From: Escherichia coli
GTDB taxonomy: Bacteria > Pseudomonadota > Gammaproteobacteria > Enterobacterales > Enterobacteriaceae
Assembly: GCF_003018115.1 (NCBI RefSeq)
Contig: NZ_CP027457.1
DNA: 64,000 nt
Strand: one strand, 5' to 3'
This document shows, piece by piece, positions 9,378 through 64,000 of this stretch. Position 1 is the first letter of the stretch. Every line of letters starts with the position of its first letter. Below the pieces are notes generated by a model, which ran no database searches, had not been told where the DNA came from, and saw nothing but the letters and a program-made list of their open reading frames with translations. The position numbers and the translations under genes are program-made.

Positions 9378-12441
<3,064 letters not shown>

Positions 12442-54375: not shown

Positions 54376-54403
54376 TTGCCCGGCACGTAGCCGGGCAATT
54401 TTG
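54376..54403. terminator. bidirectional terminator between yncE and ansP (TTGCCCGGC-ACGTA-GCCGGGCAA then TTTTG)
   Basis: 9-bp stem then T-tract. Confidence 0.5.
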
Positions 54404-54406
54404 CAA

Positions 54407-55906
54407 TTAACTCGCCGTTTCAGGCTTAAACACAATTTCCTGTTTTTCTTCATCTTCCTCGACGACTGGCGCAGTGCTGTGAATTTCGGCAACGCGTTTG
54501 CGCACACCAAACCAACCCACAACCAGCAGAAGGCCAATAATCGGCAGCGAAGCAATGGTATAAGTCCCGTTCGGGTAATCGAACGCCATCAGCACCAGTA
54601 CGCTCAGCAAAAACAATAACGTCAGCCAGGAAGTGAAGGGGGCACCGGGGAGTTTAAAACTGACATCTGCCGCTTTACCTTCTTTAATAGCCTTACGCAG
54701 ACGCATCTGGCAAACGATGATAAACGCCCATGAAGCGATGATTCCCAGCGACGCGAAGTTCAACACAATCTCAAATACGCGTGACGGCACCAGATAGTTG
54801 AGGAATACGCCGACGACATACACAACCAGTGTCGCCAGAATCCCGGCATACGGCACATGCTGACGGCTCATTTTCGCCATAAAACTCGGTGCGGAACCGC
54901 CCATCGCCATTGAGCGCAGAATACGCCCGGTGCAGTACAGGCCTGAGTTCAGGCTGGAGAGTGCAGCGGTCAGCACCACAATATTCATAATGCTGCCGAT
55001 ATACGGCACGCCAAGTTTAGAGAAGAAAGTCACAAAAGGACTCTGCCCGGCCTGGTATGCATTCCACGGCAGCAATAGCACCAGCAGAACCACCGAACCC
55101 ACATAGAACAGACCGATACGCCAAATAACACTGTTGATCGCTTTCGGCACCATCGTCTGTGGATCTTTACATTCACCAGCCGCAGTACCTACCAGTTCAA
55201 TCGATGCAAAGGCAAAAACCACCCCCTGGATAAGCACCAGTGCAGGCAGCAGCCCGTGCGGGAAGAAACCGCCATTATCGGTAATTAAATGGAACCCTGT
55301 GGTATTACCATCCAGCGGCTGACCACTACCGAGGAACACCGTACCCACCACCAGGAAGATCACAATAGCGAGCACTTTAATGAGTGCAAACCAGAACTCC
55401 ATCTCTGCGAACCATTTCACACCGATCATGTTCATGGTGCCTACGATGGTCAGCGCAGCGAGCGCAAAGACCCACTGCGGCACGTCGCCAAACGCCCCCC
55501 AGTAATGCATATACAGCGCTACAGCGGTGATATCGACAATCCCCGTCATCGCCCAGTTGATGAAATACATCCAGCCAGCAACATAAGCGGCTTTCTCACC
55601 CAAAAACTCACGGGCATAAGAGACAAAACTGCCACTGGAAGGGCGGTGTAACACCAGCTCACCCAATGCACGTAGAATAAAAAATGAAAACAGGCCGCAG
55701 ATCAAATAGACCAGTGCCAGTGCGGGCCCCGCCATTTGCAGTCGGGCTCCTGCACCTAAAAACAAGCCGGTGCCAATCGCGCCGCCAATGGCGATCATCT
55801 GTACCTGGCGATTGCCCATCGCTTTGTGATACCCCTCTTCGTGGGCATTAAGCCAGCGGCGTTTCGCGGCGTGTTGATCTGAAGTGTCGGTGTCGTGTTT
55901 ACTCAT
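54407..55906 (-). CDS. ansP: L-asparagine permease (APC family)
   Basis: Internal ATG giving MSKHDTDTSDQHAAKRRWLNAHEEGYHKAMGNRQVQMIAIGGAIGTG..., 499 aa. Confidence 0.9.
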   Translation of the reverse strand: MSKHDTDTSDQHAAKRRWLNAHEEGYHKAMGNRQVQMIAIGGAIGTGLFLGAGARLQMAGPALALVYLICGLFSFFILRALGELVLHRPSSGSFVSYAREFLGEKAAYVAGWMYFINWAMTGIVDITAVALYMHYWGAFGDVPQWVFALAALTIVGTMNMIGVKWFAEMEFWFALIKVLAIVIFLVVGTVFLGSGQPLDGNTTGFHLITDNGGFFPHGLLPALVLIQGVVFAFASIELVGTAAGECKDPQTMVPKAINSVIWRIGLFYVGSVVLLVLLLPWNAYQAGQSPFVTFFSKLGVPYIGSIMNIVVLTAALSSLNSGLYCTGRILRSMAMGGSAPSFMAKMSRQHVPYAGILATLVVYVVGVFLNYLVPSRVFEIVLNFASLGIIASWAFIIVCQMRLRKAIKEGKAADVSFKLPGAPFTSWLTLLFLLSVLVLMAFDYPNGTYTIASLPIIGLLLVVGWFGVRKRVAEIHSTAPVVEEDEEKQEIVFKPETAS

Positions 55907-56172
55907 TGCTCTCCCTGATTGCTTTAATGAAAAAGTCATATAAGTTGCCATGAACAATGTTTATTCATCCTGGCGATGATAGTTATCACCATTATTCTTT
56001 ATGGGTATAAAACTATCGGCGCAGCATCCTACCCGTTATCGATAAACGATGCAAAACATCCCCTTACAATCCTGAAGGGGAATAATACAACTGACGAAAA
56101 AATGACAAATCCTTTTGCTGGTTAACCTGTGTACTGTCCTACACTTAATCTTTAAAAGATTGTGAGGGGCAT

Positions 56173-56790
56173 ATGATTAAGGTGTATGGCGTACCCGGAT
56201 GGGGCTCTACAATCAGTGAGCTGATGCTAACACTGGCTGATATTCCTTATCAGTTCTTTGATGTCAGTGGTTTTGACCACGAGGGAACTTCACGCGAGTT
56301 ATTGAAAACCCTGAACCCGTTGTGTCAGATTCCGACACTGGCGCTGGAAAATGACGAGATTATGACGGAGACAGCGGCGATTGCATTGATGGTTCTCGAT
56401 CGTCGCCCGGACCTTGCGCCACCGGTTGGGCGCGCCGAACGTCAGCTGTTTCAACGGCTATTGGTCTGGCTGGTTGCTAATGTCTATCCAACATTCACTT
56501 TCGCCGATTACCCTGAGCGTTGGGCTCCTGACGCACCTGAACAGTTAAAGAAGAATGTTATTGAATATCGAAAATCGCTTTATATCTGGTTGAATTCGCA
56601 GCTCACTGCTGAACCTTATGCGTTTGGTGAGCAACTAACGCTGGTGGACTGTTATCTTTGCACTATGCGCACATGGGGGCCTGGGCATGAATGGTTTCAG
56701 GATAATGCCACGAATATCAGTGCGATTGCTGATGCTGTATGTCAGTTACCGAAATTACAAGAAGTATTAAAAAGGAATGAAATTATTTGA
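56173..56790 (+). CDS. yncG: glutathione S-transferase homologue
   Basis: 205-aa ORF with thioredoxin-like N-domain. Confidence 0.8.
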   Translation: MIKVYGVPGWGSTISELMLTLADIPYQFFDVSGFDHEGTSRELLKTLNPLCQIPTLALENDEIMTETAAIALMVLDRRPDLAPPVGRAERQLFQRLLVWLVANVYPTFTFADYPERWAPDAPEQLKKNVIEYRKSLYIWLNSQLTAEPYAFGEQLTLVDCYLCTMRTWGPGHEWFQDNATNISAIADAVCQLPKLQEVLKRNEII

Positions 56791-56865
56791 GTGGGATACC
56801 AGAAGATTATGTTATTTATTATTCAGTAACTTTATCCACAATGATGGGCGTAATTAATTAAATTC

Positions 56866-57078
56866 ATGGTATGTTTTTTAATTTATATCACTCTCCTTTT
56901 CATTCAGCGTGTCTATTTCATTTCCTCTGAAAAGAAACTAACTATTCACATTGTGCAGATGGTTCAGTTGTTATCACAGGCATTCTATAATCTCAAAATG
57001 TTTTTAATGATGGATATGCTCGGAGTTGGAGATGCAATTAATATTAATACAAATAAAAATATCCGGCAGGTATGCTAA
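56866..57078 (+). CDS. yncH: small hydrophobic protein in AT-rich tract
   Basis: 70-aa ORF; weak coding signal, assignment mainly by position. Confidence 0.5.
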   Translation: MVCFLIYITLLFIQRVYFISSEKKLTIHIVQMVQLLSQAFYNLKMFLMMDMLGVGDAININTNKNIRQVC

Positions 57079-57897
57079 AAGGATAAATGGCGTTCTCTGT
57101 ATTTATTCGCAATTATCTGTAGGACAAATATGGAGAGCTTGATGAGTCAGAGCTAAAACAGCAATTGATTAATAAACATGTTGATTTATTCAAGAAAATG
57201 GATGTATTTTAAATGTTGATTCTTAATATAACCTAATCAATAGATTATCAAGTGAGAGCTACACATTATTGGAGGGGCAGGGGAAAACACCATTTTGGGA
57301 ACAATGCATCAGGTACTCTTACCACTGAAGCAAGATCATCCGGCACCAGGTGGTGGTGCAGTGCTTTGGAAATGGTCCCCTCGGGGGAGTTGTCATTATT
57401 TTCTATGCTATTTGCTTATTATATTCATCAGGTGAATTTAATAAATTCCTAATTTGAAATATCCACTATTAAGCTAGTGTTTAACGACGTTAAGATGGCA
57501 ATGTGCAGATCATGTTATCAGGGTGGGGCGGTAGCGTATATTCCTTATACAAACCATCATTCATTTCAATGATTGTTATTGAATTATTTATTGTTGTGAA
57601 TAAAAAGACATTATGAATATTGGTTTGACTTTGCATATCAGGTTTTTTATTACTCGCTGTAATGTACGAGCCTGTCGTGAATAACGTCGAGAACCCATCC
57701 GTTGCGTTTGTGATTATTTTGTTGACTAAACAGACACCCGTTTCTCTGAAGTAAAATCCCAGACTAAATCATCACATAACCATGACATTTTTCTGATATT
57801 CCCCGGTAACGCCAGATGTCGACTCGCTTATCTCATCCGCCCGACATGTTGTACATGCAATATGTGCGGATTATTATTCATTTTCACGGAGGTTGCT

Positions 57898-60006
57898 ATG
57901 TCAACCGGATTACGTTTCACACTGGAAGTGGACGGCCTGCCACCGGACGCTTTTGCGGTGGTTTCCTTTCATCTCACCCAGTCACTCTCTTCACTCTTTT
58001 CCCTCGATCTCTCCCTGGTCAGCCAGCAGTTTCTCTCCCTTGAATTTGCGCAGGTGCTGGACAAAATGGCCTACCTGACAATATGGCAGGGTGATGATGT
58101 ACAGCGCCGGGTGAAAGGTGTGGTGACCTGGTTTGAACTGGGGGAGAACGACAAAAACCAGATGCTGTACAGCATGAAGGTGCACCCGCCGCTGTGGCGT
58201 GCCGGTCTGCGCCAGAACTTCCGTATCTTCCAGAACGAGGACATCAAAAGCATCCTCGGCACGATATTGCAGGAAAACGGGGTGACCGAGTGGAGTCCGC
58301 TGTTCAGTGAACCGCATCCTTCCCGTGAGTTTTGTGTCCAGTACGGTGAGACTGATTACGATTTCCTGTGCCGGATGGCGGCGGAGGAAGGCATCTTCTT
58401 TTATGAGGAGCATGCTTACAAAAGTACCGACCAGAGCCTGGTGCTGTGCGACACGGTCCGCCATCTGCCCGAATCTTTTGAAATCCCCTGGAACCCGAAC
58501 CCCCGTACCGAGGTGAGCACCCTCTGCATCAGCCAGTTTCGCTACAGCGCACAAATCCGCCCTTCTTCCGTGGTGACCAAAGACTACACCTTTAAACGCC
58601 CCGGCTGGGCAGGACGTTTTGATCAGGAAGGCCAGCACCAGGATTACCAGCGCACGCAGTATGAGGTGTATGACTACCCCGGACGTTTCAAGGGCGCCCA
58701 CGGGCAGAACTTTGCCCGCTGGCAGATGGAGGGCTGGCGAAACAATGCAGAAACCGCGCGGGGAATGAGTCGCTCGCCGGAGATATGGCCGGGACGGCGA
58801 ATTGTGCTGACGGGGCATCCGCAGGCGAACCTGAACCGGGAATGGCAGGTGGTGGCGAGCGATCTTCACGGCGAACAGCCGCAGGCGGTACCGGGACGCA
58901 GGGGTTCAGGCACCACGCTGGATAACCATTTTGCGGTAATACCGGCAGACCGGACATGGCGACCACAGCCGTTGCTGAAACCGCTGGTGGATGGCCCGCA
59001 GAGCGCCGTCGTGACGGGACCGGCAGGCGAGGAAATCTTCTGCGACGAACATGGTCGCGTGCGGGTGAAATTTAACTGGGACCGCTATAACCCGTCAAAC
59101 CAGGACAGTTCATGCTGGATCCGTGTGGCACAGGCGTGGGCAGGCACCGGCTTTGGCAACCTGGCGATACCGCGTGTGGGTCAGGAGGTGATTGTGGACT
59201 TCCTCAACGGCGATCCGGACCAGCCGATTATTATGGGGCGTACCTACCACCAGGAAAACCGCACACCCGGCAGCCTGCCGGGGACGAAGACGCAGATGAC
59301 CATTCGTTCGAAAACCTATAAGGGCAGCGGGTTTAATGAACTGAAGTTTGACGATGCGACAGGGAAAGAACAGGTCTACATCCACGCGCAGAAGAACATG
59401 AACACCGAGGTGCTGAATAACCGCACCACGGATGTGATAAACAACCATGCTGAGACCATTGGCAACAATCAGATGATTGCGGTTACCAACAATCAGATAC
59501 AGACGGTGGGCGTTAACCAGATAGAGACGGTGGGCAGTAACCAGATCATTAACGTGGGTTCTGTTCAGGTGGAAACGATTGGACTTGTTCGTGCGCTGAC
59601 CGTGGGCGTGGCGTACCAGACGACGGTAGGTGGCATTATGAACACTTCGGTGGCTCTGATGCAGTCCTCGCAGATCGGTTTGCATAAATCGTTGAGGGTC
59701 GGGCTGGGTTATGACGTCAAAGTCGGAAATAACGTTACCTTCACCGTTGGTAAAACGAAAAAGGATGATACCGGGCAGACCGCGATTTACTCCGCCGGTG
59801 AGCATCTGGAGCTCTGCTGTGGTAAGGCAAAGCTGGTGCTGACAAAGGACGGTCAAATTTTTCTCAACGGCACAAAAATTCATTTGCAGGGTAAGGAGCA
59901 GGTTAATGGTGACTCACTGTTGATTAACTGGAACTGTGCAGCCTCGAAATCCCCACCGAAGACCCCTGATGAAAAGCAGGATACGCCGGATATGAGAGAG
60001 TACTGA
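57898..60006 (+). CDS. vgrG: VgrG-family protein (T6SS spike, gp27/gp5-like) with Val-Gly repeat C-terminal region
   Basis: ATG at 57898 after GGAGG; MSTGLRFTLEVDGLPPDAF...; VG-rich repeats (NNQMIAVTNNQIQTVGVNQIETVGSNQIINVGSVQVETIG); high GC. Confidence 0.85.
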   Translation: MSTGLRFTLEVDGLPPDAFAVVSFHLTQSLSSLFSLDLSLVSQQFLSLEFAQVLDKMAYLTIWQGDDVQRRVKGVVTWFELGENDKNQMLYSMKVHPPLWRAGLRQNFRIFQNEDIKSILGTILQENGVTEWSPLFSEPHPSREFCVQYGETDYDFLCRMAAEEGIFFYEEHAYKSTDQSLVLCDTVRHLPESFEIPWNPNPRTEVSTLCISQFRYSAQIRPSSVVTKDYTFKRPGWAGRFDQEGQHQDYQRTQYEVYDYPGRFKGAHGQNFARWQMEGWRNNAETARGMSRSPEIWPGRRIVLTGHPQANLNREWQVVASDLHGEQPQAVPGRRGSGTTLDNHFAVIPADRTWRPQPLLKPLVDGPQSAVVTGPAGEEIFCDEHGRVRVKFNWDRYNPSNQDSSCWIRVAQAWAGTGFGNLAIPRVGQEVIVDFLNGDPDQPIIMGRTYHQENRTPGSLPGTKTQMTIRSKTYKGSGFNELKFDDATGKEQVYIHAQKNMNTEVLNNRTTDVINNHAETIGNNQMIAVTNNQIQTVGVNQIETVGSNQIINVGSVQVETIGLVRALTVGVAYQTTVGGIMNTSVALMQSSQIGLHKSLRVGLGYDVKVGNNVTFTVGKTKKDDTGQTAIYSAGEHLELCCGKAKLVLTKDGQIFLNGTKIHLQGKEQVNGDSLLINWNCAASKSPPKTPDEKQDTPDMREY

Positions 60007-60073: not shown

Positions 60074-63000
60074 ATGAGCGGAAAACCAGCGGCGCGTCAG
60101 GGAGATATGACTCAGTATGGCGGTCCCATTGTCCAGGGTTCGGCAGGTGTAAGAATTGGCGCGCCAACTGGCGTGGCGTGCTCGGTGTGTCCGGGCGGGA
60201 TGACCTCGGGCAACCCGGTGAACCCGCTGCTCGGTGCAAAAGTACAGCCCGGCGAGACGGACCTTGCGCTGCCCGGCCCGCTGCCGTTCATTCTCTCCCG
60301 CACCTACAGCAGCTACCGGACCCGGACGCCTGCACCGGTGGGCGTTTTCGGCCCCGGCTGGAAAGCGCCTTCTGATATCCGCTTACAGCTACGTGATGAC
60401 GGACTGATACTCAACGACAACGGCGGGCGGAGCATTCACTTTGAGCCGCTGCTGCCAGGGGAGGCGGTGTACAGCCGCAGCGAGTCCCTGTGGCTGGTGC
60501 GCGGTGGTAAGGCAGCACAGCCGGACGGCCATACGCTGGCACGGCTGTGGGCGTCGCTGCCGCCGGATATCCGGTTAAGCCCGCATCTTTACCTGGCGAC
60601 CAACAGCGCACAGGGGCCGTGGTGGATACTGGGGTGGTCTGAGCGGGTGCCGGGTGCTGAGGACGTACTGCCAGCGCCGCTGCCGCCGTACCGGGTGCTT
60701 ACCGGGATGGCGGACCGCTTCGGGCGGACGCTGACGTACCGGCGTGACGGACGGTGCCGGGCGTGAGTTCCGTCTGGTGCTGACCACACAGGCGCAGCGG
60801 GCGGAAGAGGCCCGGCAGCAGGCGGTCGTCGCCGGAGCAAAACGACCGGACATTCCTGATTCACTGCCGGAGAGCACAGAGTACGGCCCCGACAGGGGTA
60901 TCCGTCTTTCAGCGGTGTGGCTGATGCACGACCCGGCATACCCGGAGAATCTGCCCGGTGCGCCACTGGCGCGGTACACGTATACGGAAGCCGGTGAACT
61001 GCTGGCGGTATATGACCGCAGCAATACGCAGGTGCGTGCTTTCACGTATGACCCGCAGCACCCGGGCCGGATGGTGGCGCACCGTTACGCGGGAAGGCCG
61101 GAGATGCGCTACCGCTACGACGATACGGGGCGGGTGGTGGAGCAACTGAACCCGGCAGGGTTAAGCTACCGCTATCTTTATGAGCAGGACCGCATCACCG
61201 TCACCGACAGCCTGAACCGGCGTGAGGTGCTGCATACAGAAGGCGGGGCCGGGCTGAAGCGGGTGGTGAAAAAAGAACTGGCGGACGGCAGCGTCACGCG
61301 CAGCGGGTATGACCCGGTGGGGCGGCTTACGGCGCAGACGGACGCGGCGGGACGGCGGACAGAGTACGGTCTGAATGTGGTGTCAGTCGACATCACGGAT
61401 ATCACCACGCCGGACGGGCGGGAGACGAAATTTTACTATAACGACGGGAACCAGTTAACGGCAGTGGTGTACCCGGACGGGCTGGAGAGCAGCCGGGCAT
61501 ATGATGAGCTGGACAGGCTGGTAACGGAGACATCGCGCAGCGGGGAGACAGTACGCTACCGCTATGATGATGCGCACAGTGAATTACCGGCCACAACAAC
61601 AGATGCGACGGGCAGCACCCGGCAGATGACGTGGAGCCGCTACGGTCAGTTGCTGGCGTTCACCGACTGCTCGGGCTACCAGACCCGCTATGAATACGAC
61701 CGCTTCGGCCAGATGACGGCGGTCCACCGCGAGGAAGGCATCAGCCTTTACCGCCGCTATGACAACCGTGGCCGGTTAATCTCGGTGAAAGACGCACAGG
61801 GCCATGAAACGCGGTATGAATACAACGCCGCAGGCGACCTGACTGCCCTCATTACCCCGGACGGCAACCGGAGCGAGACACAGTACGATGCGTGGGGAAA
61901 GGCGGTCAGCACCACGCAGGGCGGGCTGACGCGCAGTATGGAATACGACCTTGCCGGACGCATCACCACGCTGACCAACGAGAACGGCAGCCGGAGTGAG
62001 TTTACCTACGATGCGCTTGACCGGCTGGTACAGCAGCGCGGCTTTGACGGGCGGACGCAACGTTACCACTATGACCTGACCGGAAAACTCACGCAGAGTG
62101 AAGATGAGGGGCTTGTCACCCTCTGGCACTACGACGAATCGGACCGCCTCACTCACCGCACGGTGAACGGCGAACCGGCAGAGCAGTGGCAGTATGATGG
62201 CCACGGCTGGCTGACAGAAATCAGCCACCTGAGCGAAGGCCATCAGGTGGCGGTGCATTACGGTTATGATGATAAGGGCCGCCTGGCCGGGGAGCGCCAG
62301 ACGGTGCATAACCCGGAGACGGGGGAACTGCTGTGGCAGCATGAGACAGAGCACGCATACAACGAACAGGGGCTGGCAAACCGCGTCACGCCGGACGGCC
62401 TGCCGCGGGTGGAGTGGCTGACCTACGGCAGCGGTTATCTTGCGGGGATGAAGCTGGGCGGGACACCTCTGGTCGAGTATACGCGGGACCGCCTGCACCG
62501 GGAAACTGCGCGCAGCTTTGGTAACGGAACGGGCAGTACAGCCGCATATGAACTGACCAGCACTTACACCCCCGCAGGCCGGTTACAGAGCCAGCACCTG
62601 AACAGCCTGATGTATGACCGTGACTACGTGTGGAATGACAACGGCGACCTGGTGCGCATCAGCGGCCCGCGACAGACGCGGGAATACGGCTACAGCGCCA
62701 CGGGCAGGCTGGAGAGCGTGCGCACCCTCGCACCGGACCTGGACATCCGCATCCCGTATGCCACCGACCCGGCGGGAAACCGGCTGCCGGACCCGGAGCT
62801 ACACCCGGACAGCACGCTCACGGCGTGGCCGGATAACCGCATCGCGGAGGATGCGCACTATGTTTACCACTATGATGAATACGGCAGGCTGACGGAGAAG
62901 ACGGACCGCATCCCGGCGGGTGTGATACGGACGGACGACGAGCGGACCCACCACTACCACTACGACAGCCAGCACCGTCTGGTGTTCTACACGCGGATAC

Positions 63001-64000
63001 AGCATGGCGAGCCGCAGGTGGAGAGCCGCTACCTCTGTGACCCGCTGGGACGGCGAATGGCGAAACGGGTATGGCGGCGGGAGCGTGACCTGACAGGATG
63101 GATGTCGCTGTCGCGTAAACCGGAGGTGACGTGGTATGGCTGGGACGGAGACAGGCTGACGACGGTACAGACAGACCAGACCCGTATCCAGACGGTCTAC
63201 CAGCCGGGGAGCTTCACGCCGCTCATCCGTATCGAGACAGAGAACGGCGAACGGGAGAAAATGCAGCGCCGCAGCCTAGCGGAGAAGTTACAGTCGGAAG
63301 GGAGTGAGGACGGTCACGGTGTGGTGTTCCCGGCTGAGCTGGTGAGGATGCTGGACAGGCTGGAGGAAGAAATCCGGGCAGGCCGCGTGAGCAGTGAAAG
63401 CCGGGCGTGGCTTGCGCAGTGCGGGCTGACGGTGGAGCAACTGGCCAGACAGGTGGAGCCGGAATACACACCGGCGCGAAAAGTTCATCTTTATCACTGC
63501 GACCACCGGGGCCTGCCGCTGGCGCTCATCAGCGAAGACGGCAATACGGCGTGGCGCGGGGAGTATGATGAATGGGGCAACCAGCTTAATGAGGAGAACC
63601 CGCATCATGTGTATCAGCCATACCGCCTGCCGGGGCAGCAGTATGATGAGGAGTCGGGGCTGTACTATAACCGCAACCGGTACTATGATCCGTTGCAGGG
63701 GAGGTATATTACCCAGGATCCGATTGGGCCAGTGGGGGGGTGGAATCCCTATAGTTATGTGCTTAATAATCCAGCCCAGTTTATTGACCCAACAGGTTTA
63801 ACTCAAGAGGACAATTGGACCTATGGTGAGGTAGGTAATAGCTGTGTTACGAGTCAACGCGATTTTACTCCCCCGCCCGGACTTGCGGATATGAAAGCCA
63901 GCATTGGCGCTGCCTGCTCAAGAAACAATGCTTCCAGAAACTGCCACCCCGTAGATGGTAGTAATGCTTCTGCACCATCGGATAAAGCCGCATGGGAAAA
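60074..64000 (+). pseudogene. rhsE: Rhs-family polymorphic toxin gene (PAAR-like N-domain, YD-repeat core, start of C-terminal toxin), interrupted by a frame change near 60732-60766; 3' end beyond window
   Basis: N-terminal 230-codon ORF 60074-60766 (MSGKPAARQGDMTQYGGPIVQGSAGVRIGAPTGVACSVCPGG...); core continues in frame +1 from 60735 ([25 protein letters not shown]...) with YD repeats to a DPxGL core end at 63786-63800, then a divergent lower-GC C-terminal region. Confidence 0.7.

Follow-up and report, generated by a model that had tools for sequence, protein, structure and literature searches.

In the stretch of Escherichia coli DNA analysed here (64,000 nucleotides, hereafter the window), a 1.1-kb spacer separates yncG from a vgrG-rhs module. 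Is this spacer the debris of an island insertion, a home for small proteins or a small RNA, or a part of the module that follows it? The genes and signals that frame it are:

54407-55957, minus strand: ansP
56173-56790: yncG
56788-56790, plus strand: yncG stop codon, the left edge of the variable island relative to class B (PAAR-VgrG-M35) strains
56866-57078, plus strand: yncH, 70 codons, Pfam DUF5445
57888-57900, plus strand: Shine-Dalgarno GGAGG and vgrG start codon
57898-60006: vgrG, with its ATG at 57898; tssI is annotated from the same base
From 60074: rhs gene

The downstream genes are made up as a T6SS auxiliary module, in which a VgrG with gpD, gp5 OB and gp5_C domains (Pfam Phage_GPD, Phage_base_V and Gp5_trimer_C) is followed by an Rhs protein with an N-terminal DUF6531 region. 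The rhs frame is apparently broken near 60735-60766.

The initial annotation described the spacer as strongly AT-rich, and its GC content of 35.3% (56800-57897) is indeed the minimum of the window, compared with 50.7% for the window, 47.2% for yncG, 55.5% for vgrG and 62.3% for the rhs part. All windows of 1098 nt with a GC content below 38% fall at 56800-57897, so that the spacer is the AT extreme of the 64 kb, and this AT-richness is beyond chance.

It is argued below that the spacer probably serves vgrG-rhsE, a T6SS auxiliary operon, as its non-coding 5′ region and is composed of two parts with different histories. The first (56791-57416) would be locus-specific, nearly neutral AT-rich filler, and the second (57417-57897) would belong to the vgrG-rhs module and begin with a 124-bp left-end element that holds a 37-bp core. 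The anatomy, distribution and conservation contrast of these parts come from the present analysis, while binding by H-NS and RNA polymerase is taken from the literature on the K-12 orthologue.

Locus classes and island boundary

A search of 54400-57900 against all complete E. coli genomes divided 5420 genomes into three locus classes. Class A (3565 genomes) has the arrangement of the window or a deletion derivative of it; the spacer (56800-57897) is 100% identical in strain F9792 and is present at a coverage of at least 80% in 3539 of 5426 complete genomes. In class B (e.g., F11) the match ends at 56788 (query position 2389) and is followed by approximately 540 bp and then by a PAAR-VgrG-M35 peptidase set. 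In class C (e.g., the ST131 strain 81009) the match extends only to about 56056-56068, leaving a degenerate yncG remnant, and an ISAs1 element adjoins yddH. A further arrangement, type 3, breaks from the window at the same place (about 56056-56068) and has the order yncG remnant, unannotated 176-aa ORF, hypothetical gene, vgrG, DcrB-like gene and Rhs.

The locus thus shows the presence/absence polymorphism and the sharp homology break beside a conserved neighbor that mark a genomic island. Comparison with other E. coli loci, as the initial annotation had recommended, places its boundary relative to class B at 56788, where F11 and other B2-type strains lose homology exactly at the yncG stop; the suggestion that the spacer lies inside a variable island is thereby borne out. 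Because several cargo arrangements occur there, the interval between ansP/yncG and yddH is a T6SS cargo hotspot with the whole spacer in its variable part. Direct repeats were not found at the boundary: each locus has the core and left-end element a single time, and they do not recur at its far end. The annotations of the loci compared contain neither an integrase nor a tRNA, and ISAs1 elements are the only mobility genes there.

Some strains carry the spacer in truncated form. K-12 matches the window to 57830 and resumes at about 62214:

57830-57831: left end of the K-12 deletion, which removes vgrG and the 5′ 2.1 kb of rhsE

The deletion in FORC_081 starts from 57810, and in TW11681 the spacer continues to 57667 and then meets an ISAs1 element. 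Judged from these alignments, spacer-bearing strains without vgrG are secondary deletions. The spacer was not encountered as a conserved, syntenic region independent of the module, since all spacer-carrying genomes examined have vgrG-rhsE or a deletion remnant of it.

The left segment and its reading frames

The left half of the spacer holds three reading frames:

56791-57416, no strand: left segment, single-copy, locus-specific AT-rich filler, 34.8% GC
57087-57212, plus strand: 41-codon frame with ATG at 57087, an in-frame TAG at 57120-57122 and TAA at 57210
57252-57452, plus strand: 66-codon ORF, a mechanical ORF with a GTG start, over a 50%-GC patch

Of 5426 genomes, 3596 carry this segment, with 96-100% identity to the window; it is confined to this locus and is nowhere duplicated. 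The reading frames and the peptide-like fragment were all found where the initial annotation had placed them, the GTG-started 66-codon ORF included; its wording might imply that this ORF is yncH, which is instead the separate 70-codon ORF.

Do these frames encode proteins? One alternative holds that the spacer is a coding region for genuine small proteins, YncH and one of 41 aa, the latter a recent pseudogene in this strain. The yncH product matches PF17520 over profile positions 1-52 of 52 (E = 1.3e-39; 134.2 bits with a cut-off of 25). Nearly every class-A genome has yncH among its annotated genes, and Pfam DUF5445 is defined by it; its frame is open in the class-A genomes examined, and it was among the hits of an oxidant-resistance overexpression screen (PMC8228696). 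However, a search of 1.84 billion proteins returned only 12 YncH representatives, those examined all coming from this locus and several being fragments or frameshifted versions; two apparently divergent hits (P0012 and P0009) look frameshifted or error-prone and were not used as evidence. Relative to a divergent metagenome contig that is 77% identical across the spacer (L018), yncH substitutions are spread evenly over the three codon positions (14/17/15), and among 20 class-A sequences the changes number 3/4/4 in yncH as against 8/6/59 in vgrG. There is no third-position excess, nor is the frame kept in the divergent contig, where yncH has deletions of 15 nt and 4 nt and a changed C-terminus. 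YncH is therefore without sign of protein-level constraint.

The second frame fares similarly. The peptide-like fragment, YGELDESELKQQLINKHVDLFKKMDVF, occupies 57129-57209 with its stop at 57210-57212 and corresponds to the last 27 codons of the 41-codon frame. Intact variants of 41 and 49 codons exist, with TAT (P0001) or CAG (P0002) at the TAG codon of the 41-codon frame, and AAGGA lies 3-4 nt before the ATG, which would favor a recently lost protein. Against this, the TAG form is found in 3281 complete genomes, TAT in 5 and the CAG haplotype in 0; the divergent contig has lost the start codon and carries a 14-nt deletion; and here, too, substitutions fall evenly over the codon positions. 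A search for homologs of the fragment returned variants of the same locus only. The 66-codon ORF is crossed by a common 1-nt indel polymorphism at about 57341, with an extra G in O157:H7 and in three further loci (L022, L023, and L012).

Searches of Pfam and NCBIfam with seven small frames gave a single match, yncH to DUF5445. Among 1000 dinucleotide-shuffled versions of the spacer, 46% held an ORF of 70 codons or more and 57% one of 66 or more; the ORF lengths in the spacer are thus those expected by chance. Taken with the absence of any homolog outside the locus, these results make the small-protein alternative quite improbable. The term gene remnants in the initial annotation is also too strong, as none of the three frames has a homolog elsewhere or a coding pattern of substitution; judged from sequence, they would be better termed chance or long-dead frames. 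In the reading preferred here, yncH, the TAG-interrupted 41-codon frame and the 66-codon ORF would accordingly be by-products of composition or long-dead frames and not working genes.

Could the 50%-GC patch at 57252-57410 instead specify a small RNA, or terminate the transcripts of yncG-yncH? Local GC reaches 50%, and a terminator-like hairpin, TCCCCTCGGGGGA, is found at 57376-57388. However, the T-run after the hairpin is poor, Rfam covariance models gave no match at E ≤ 1 on either strand of 55800-58200, folding of the patch gave no structure signal (z = −0.85 on the plus strand and 0.03 on the minus strand), and the patch, where the 1-nt indel polymorphism noted above is found, ranks with the more variable stretches of the spacer. 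A small RNA or terminator at this position is very hard to credit.

The right segment accompanies vgrG

The right part of the spacer, which begins at about 57393-57417 and ends at 57897, is duplicated elsewhere: downstream of cusS, a copy with approximately 80% identity immediately precedes the vgrG of a vgrG-Eag-Rhs module. Beyond the left-end element, this part consists of:

57541-57897, plus strand: rest of the vgrG leader, about 78-80% identical to the 5′ region of the cusS-locus vgrG

The leaders at the two loci differ by indels of 1, 3, 4, and 8 nt, which mark the right part as non-coding. Two metagenome contigs (L037 and L125) have cusS-locus modules with an A-type leader, and two class-A leaders at the rhsE locus (L074 and L075) carry imported divergent tracts, from which it follows that leaders recombine between loci.

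The two halves also differ in their variability. Among four class-A strains, 4.2% of sites vary in yncG and 4.0% in the left part, as against 1.5% (7/481) with no indels in the right part (1.4% in 57541-57897 alone); the 5′ end of vgrG varies at 7.3% of sites, and 14 of its 16 changes affect the third position of a codon. A set of 20 unique class-A sequences allowed 19 comparisons with the window, and in 16 of them the right 481 bp had diverged less than the left 626 bp.

These observations bear on the junction-debris view of the initial annotation when it is extended to all 1.1 kb, which would then be a relic of island insertion without function. Several points favor it: the tract is AT-rich, Rfam matches and RNA structure signals are absent, its promoter-like sites are not above chance (see below), the left part evolves like neutral DNA, and K-12, FORC_081, and TW11681 have lost some of the right part by deletion with no evident ill effect. 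The description suits the left half. It does not suit the right 481 bp, which accompanies vgrG to a second chromosomal site, stays nearer to the window than its left neighbor in most comparisons, includes a core in which 20 sequences show no segregating site, and lies in a spacer bound in vitro by sigma-70 holoenzyme. As an account of the whole spacer, debris is considered unlikely.

Constraint on the leader itself should not be overstated. Between loci the leader is approximately 80% identical, below the figure of approximately 90% for four-fold sites of vgrG. Gene conversion of vgrG is the most likely reason that the leader is less conserved than the synonymous sites of the gene; nonetheless, the comparison weakens the case for constraint on the leader.

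A conserved core and its ISAs1 joints

The right segment, in which the left-end element comes before the leader, contains the following features:

57417-57540, plus strand: left-end element, 124 bp, common to the T6SS cargo islands examined in E. coli
57434-57448: perfect palindrome GAATTTAATAAATTC, read from the sequence
57481-57493: palindrome TTAACGACGTTAA, its AACGTT center kept in paralogs
57503-57539, plus strand: 37-bp core, GTGCAGAT-N5-YATCAGGG-N4-GCGGTAGCGTAT

The left-end element has alignable counterparts in the cusS-locus module (L006) and in the type-3 island (L007, L009, and L019), and a truncated copy is present in class C (L005 and L008). The first palindrome has at most one change in the cusS and type-3 copies and overlaps a two-mismatch match to TCGATAAATT, which we take to be a high-affinity H-NS motif. 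There are three such two-mismatch matches in the 1.1-kb spacer and 80 in the 64 kb, which is not a meaningful enrichment.

Within the element, the core stands out. It is 95-100% identical in class A, cusS, type-3a, and class B and 87-89% identical in type-3b, and has no segregating sites among 20 class-A sequences, while its flanks show 60-80% identity or cannot be aligned across contexts. The core or a remnant of it is found in 5291 of 5426 genomes, and the cargo sets that it accompanies are vgrG-rhsE, vgrG-Eag-Rhs, 176-aa ORF-vgrG-DcrB-Rhs, and PAAR-vgrG-M35. A search with an exact 20-mer of the core in one genome per species gave a single match, an E. coli-like contig binned as Citrobacter, and at that sampling there is no evidence of the core outside E. 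coli.

ISAs1-family (H-rpt) joints lie within about 20 bp of the 3′ end of the core in three arrangements. In class C, the joint reads ...GATAT|CAGGG and belongs to a 1291-bp IS with identified terminal repeats; in class B, an IS left-end remnant begins 5 nt past GCGTAT; and at loci of the L059 type another ISAs1 member directly follows GCGTAT. With such joints nearby, the sharp edges of the core may reflect IS-linked rearrangement and short recombination tracts and not selection.

What, then, is the core? An ISAs1 terminal repeat was considered and rejected, CAGGG being all that the two have in common. A conserved micro-ORF across the core (MCRSCYQGGAVAY...) was likewise discarded: S-C becomes L-R in type-3b, the start and C-terminus differ in each context, and the changes are three synonymous to three non-synonymous. 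Folding of the core region gave no RNA structure signal (z = +0.83). Compared by eye, none of the consensus sites of Fur, sigma-54, CRP, ArcA, IHF, CsrA, or XerCD/dif fits it, to our knowledge. The core could act in cis as an element specific to the T6SS cargo islands of E. coli, either as a shared operator or promoter through which otherwise unrelated cargo sets are co-regulated or as a preferred joint for ISAs1-mediated replacement of cargo, but this is a tentative proposal about which we are more doubtful than confident. Short recombination or gene-conversion tracts carried with IS insertions explain the core equally well, and the core might have a regulatory role.

Promoter-like sites, H-NS and PhoB

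In the reading preferred here, 57417-57897 would carry the 5′ leader of vgrG and the promoter or promoters presumably used for its transcription. The candidate sites in this region are:

57515-57542, plus strand: promoter-like site P1, TTATCA-16-TATATT, a consensus match only
57625-57653, plus strand: predicted promoter P2, TTGACT-17-TATTAC, in the RpoD genomic SELEX table (PMC3946193)
57850-57877, plus strand: promoter-like site P3, TGTACA-16-TATTAT
57781-57798, minus strand: PhoB-box-like motif TATCAGAAAAATGTCATG, at a ChIP-seq peak (PMC10294691)

The consensus scan found three promoter-like sites where 5.7 were expected from shuffles. P1 is the only one kept in the cusS paralog, although its −10 hexamer is not kept in the type-3 and class B copies. 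The spacer of P2 varies in length (9 nt in the cusS-locus copy L006 and about 21 nt in L037), and that of P3 is interrupted in L006 by an 8-nt deletion. In what is probably a part of one Cappable-seq supplement, matching by coordinate prefix gave no hit.

Published work on K-12 provides evidence of binding. The RpoD holoenzyme binds the yncH>rhsE spacer in vitro in genomic SELEX (Shimada et al., 2014), and the table of SELEX sites in that study also marks the spacer “HNS” (PMC3946193). ChIP-seq of PhoB gave a weak peak (score 1) centered at MG1655 position 1527862, about 57788 in the window, at a site flagged as inside an H-NS ChIP-seq region (Fitzgerald et al., 2023; PMC10294691). A functional PhoB site was rejected on the grounds of this score and of a motif that is not conserved in the cusS paralog, in agreement with the view of that study that such sites are inert (PMC10294691). 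The H-NS data that the initial annotation had proposed to check thus exist in print for the K-12 orthologue (PMC3946193, PMC10294691), and the spacer also has the composition of an H-NS-bound region, with an AT content well above average over several hundred bp. H-NS would therefore be expected to coat the whole AT-rich tract and probably holds the operon quiet.

A TraDIS study classed yncH and ydcD as “essential only by TraDIS” (PMC5821084). This would be consistent with an insertion-cold, H-NS-covered region, an interpretation that is ours and is not stated in PMC5821084.

Implications

The region is the already charted yncH-rhsE intergenic region, and only the conserved core and its IS joints are mildly new. 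Several practical points follow from the analysis. YncH (DUF5445) and the neighboring frames look like artefacts of composition or dead frames and should not be propagated as families without protein evidence. The left boundaries of the T6SS effector hotspot between ansP/yncG and yddH are now fixed, and about 480 bp of leader travels with vgrG. Should the core prove to be a regulatory site, it would help to explain how T6SS cargo modules at dispersed sites are activated jointly with the secretion apparatus.

Comparison with known systems

The yncH-rhsE intergenic region of K-12 (b1455-b1456) is the same DNA, 99.8% identical over 56800-57830 and with the same neighbors, ansP, yncG, and yncH. 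It differs in lacking 57831 to about 62213, i.e., the last 67 bp of the leader, vgrG, and the 5′ 2.1 kb of rhsE, all of which the window retains. The DUF5445 family is essentially confined to one locus and lacks a signature of coding constraint, and the ORF in the window matches its full 52-position profile. H-rpt/ISAs1 elements, which are associated with Rhs loci, join this locus near the core and also flank deletions of the module; the spacer of the window is itself without IS sequence.

The spacer also resembles xenogeneic silencing systems, in which an AT-rich tract likewise lies upstream of GC-rich foreign cargo, with H-NS occupancy (here in the K-12 orthologue) and a promoter that is recognized by sigma-70 alone in vitro. 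It differs in that it is not enriched in the presumed high-affinity H-NS motif.

The closest counterpart within E. coli is the vgrG-Eag(DcrB-like)-Rhs module of the cusS locus. As in the window, vgrG is directly preceded by the left-end element and leader; the two vgrG genes have the same ribosome-binding site and first codons, and nucleotide identity over their N-terminal 500 codons is 96-97%. The leader is only approximately 80% identical to that of the window, and P2 and P3 are disrupted in it by indels of 1-8 nt. Unlike the window, the cusS-locus module has an Eag chaperone gene and a different Rhs, and no yncH-like segment precedes it.

Divergent haplotypes of the locus

In type-3 and class C strains, yncG is decayed and highly divergent (about 68% identity across a 100-nt stretch), with a 3' end that is still recognisable (L007 5592-6000 for type-3; L008 2581-3000 for class C). 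In consequence, the locus contains anciently diverged haplotypes, beyond mere presence or absence. A divergent lineage of the spacer, with 77% identity, is found on a 525-nt metagenome contig (L018), where three frames have been fused by indels into a 130-codon ORF (P0015), and long ORFs are thus easily gained and lost in this AT-rich spacer DNA. A contig labelled as a Citrobacter sp. MAG (L011) bears the yncG pseudogene, spacer and core of the E. coli class B type; it probably comes from E. coli and was placed in a Citrobacter MAG during binning.

Rearrangement of the vgrG-rhs module

Relative to the window, K-12 carries a 4.4-kb deletion from 57831 to about 62213 (junction at L001 5031/5032), which removes the final 67 bp of the leader, the entire vgrG and the initial 2.1 kb of rhs, and accounts for the truncated rhsE of this strain. 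The deletion in FORC_081 begins at 57810 and resembles that of K-12 but is independent of it. Three different arrangements place ISAs1/H-rpt elements no more than about 20 bp from the 3' end of the 37-bp core (57503-57539), and elements of this kind flank deletions of the entire vgrG-rhs module as well. The positions concerned are:

L008, 3101-4391
L003, about 11615-11800
L059, from about 6199
L145, about 5870

The 3' end of the core looks like a hot spot of IS insertion or rearrangement.

Over the N-terminal 500 codons, the vgrG paralogues of the rhsE and cusS loci share 96-97% identity (window 57898-59400 vs. L006 7454-8950). This equals the similarity seen between orthologues of different strains (92-97%) and suggests that vgrG copies have undergone gene conversion. 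In their C-terminal 200 codons, the two paralogues are unrelated.

The rhs region of the window (60074-64000) contains two frames:

60074 to 60764-60766, rhs frame, from start to stop
60735 to window end (64000), second open frame

The rhs gene thus appears to be frameshifted around 60735-60766, either as a pseudogene or through a sequencing error.

Promoter-like and PhoB-like sites in the leader

Three sites in the leader were compared with the paralogous cusS-locus leaders:

57625-57653, promoter-like site P2
57781-57798, minus strand, PhoB-box-like sequence
57850-57877, promoter-like site P3

Indels alter the -35/-10 spacers of both P2 and P3 in the paralogous leaders, with 8-nt deletions in L006 and a different T-tract length in L037 and L125. 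The PhoB-box-like sequence, which is not kept in the cusS-locus leader, coincides in position with a weak PhoB ChIP-seq peak of K-12 (PMC10294691).
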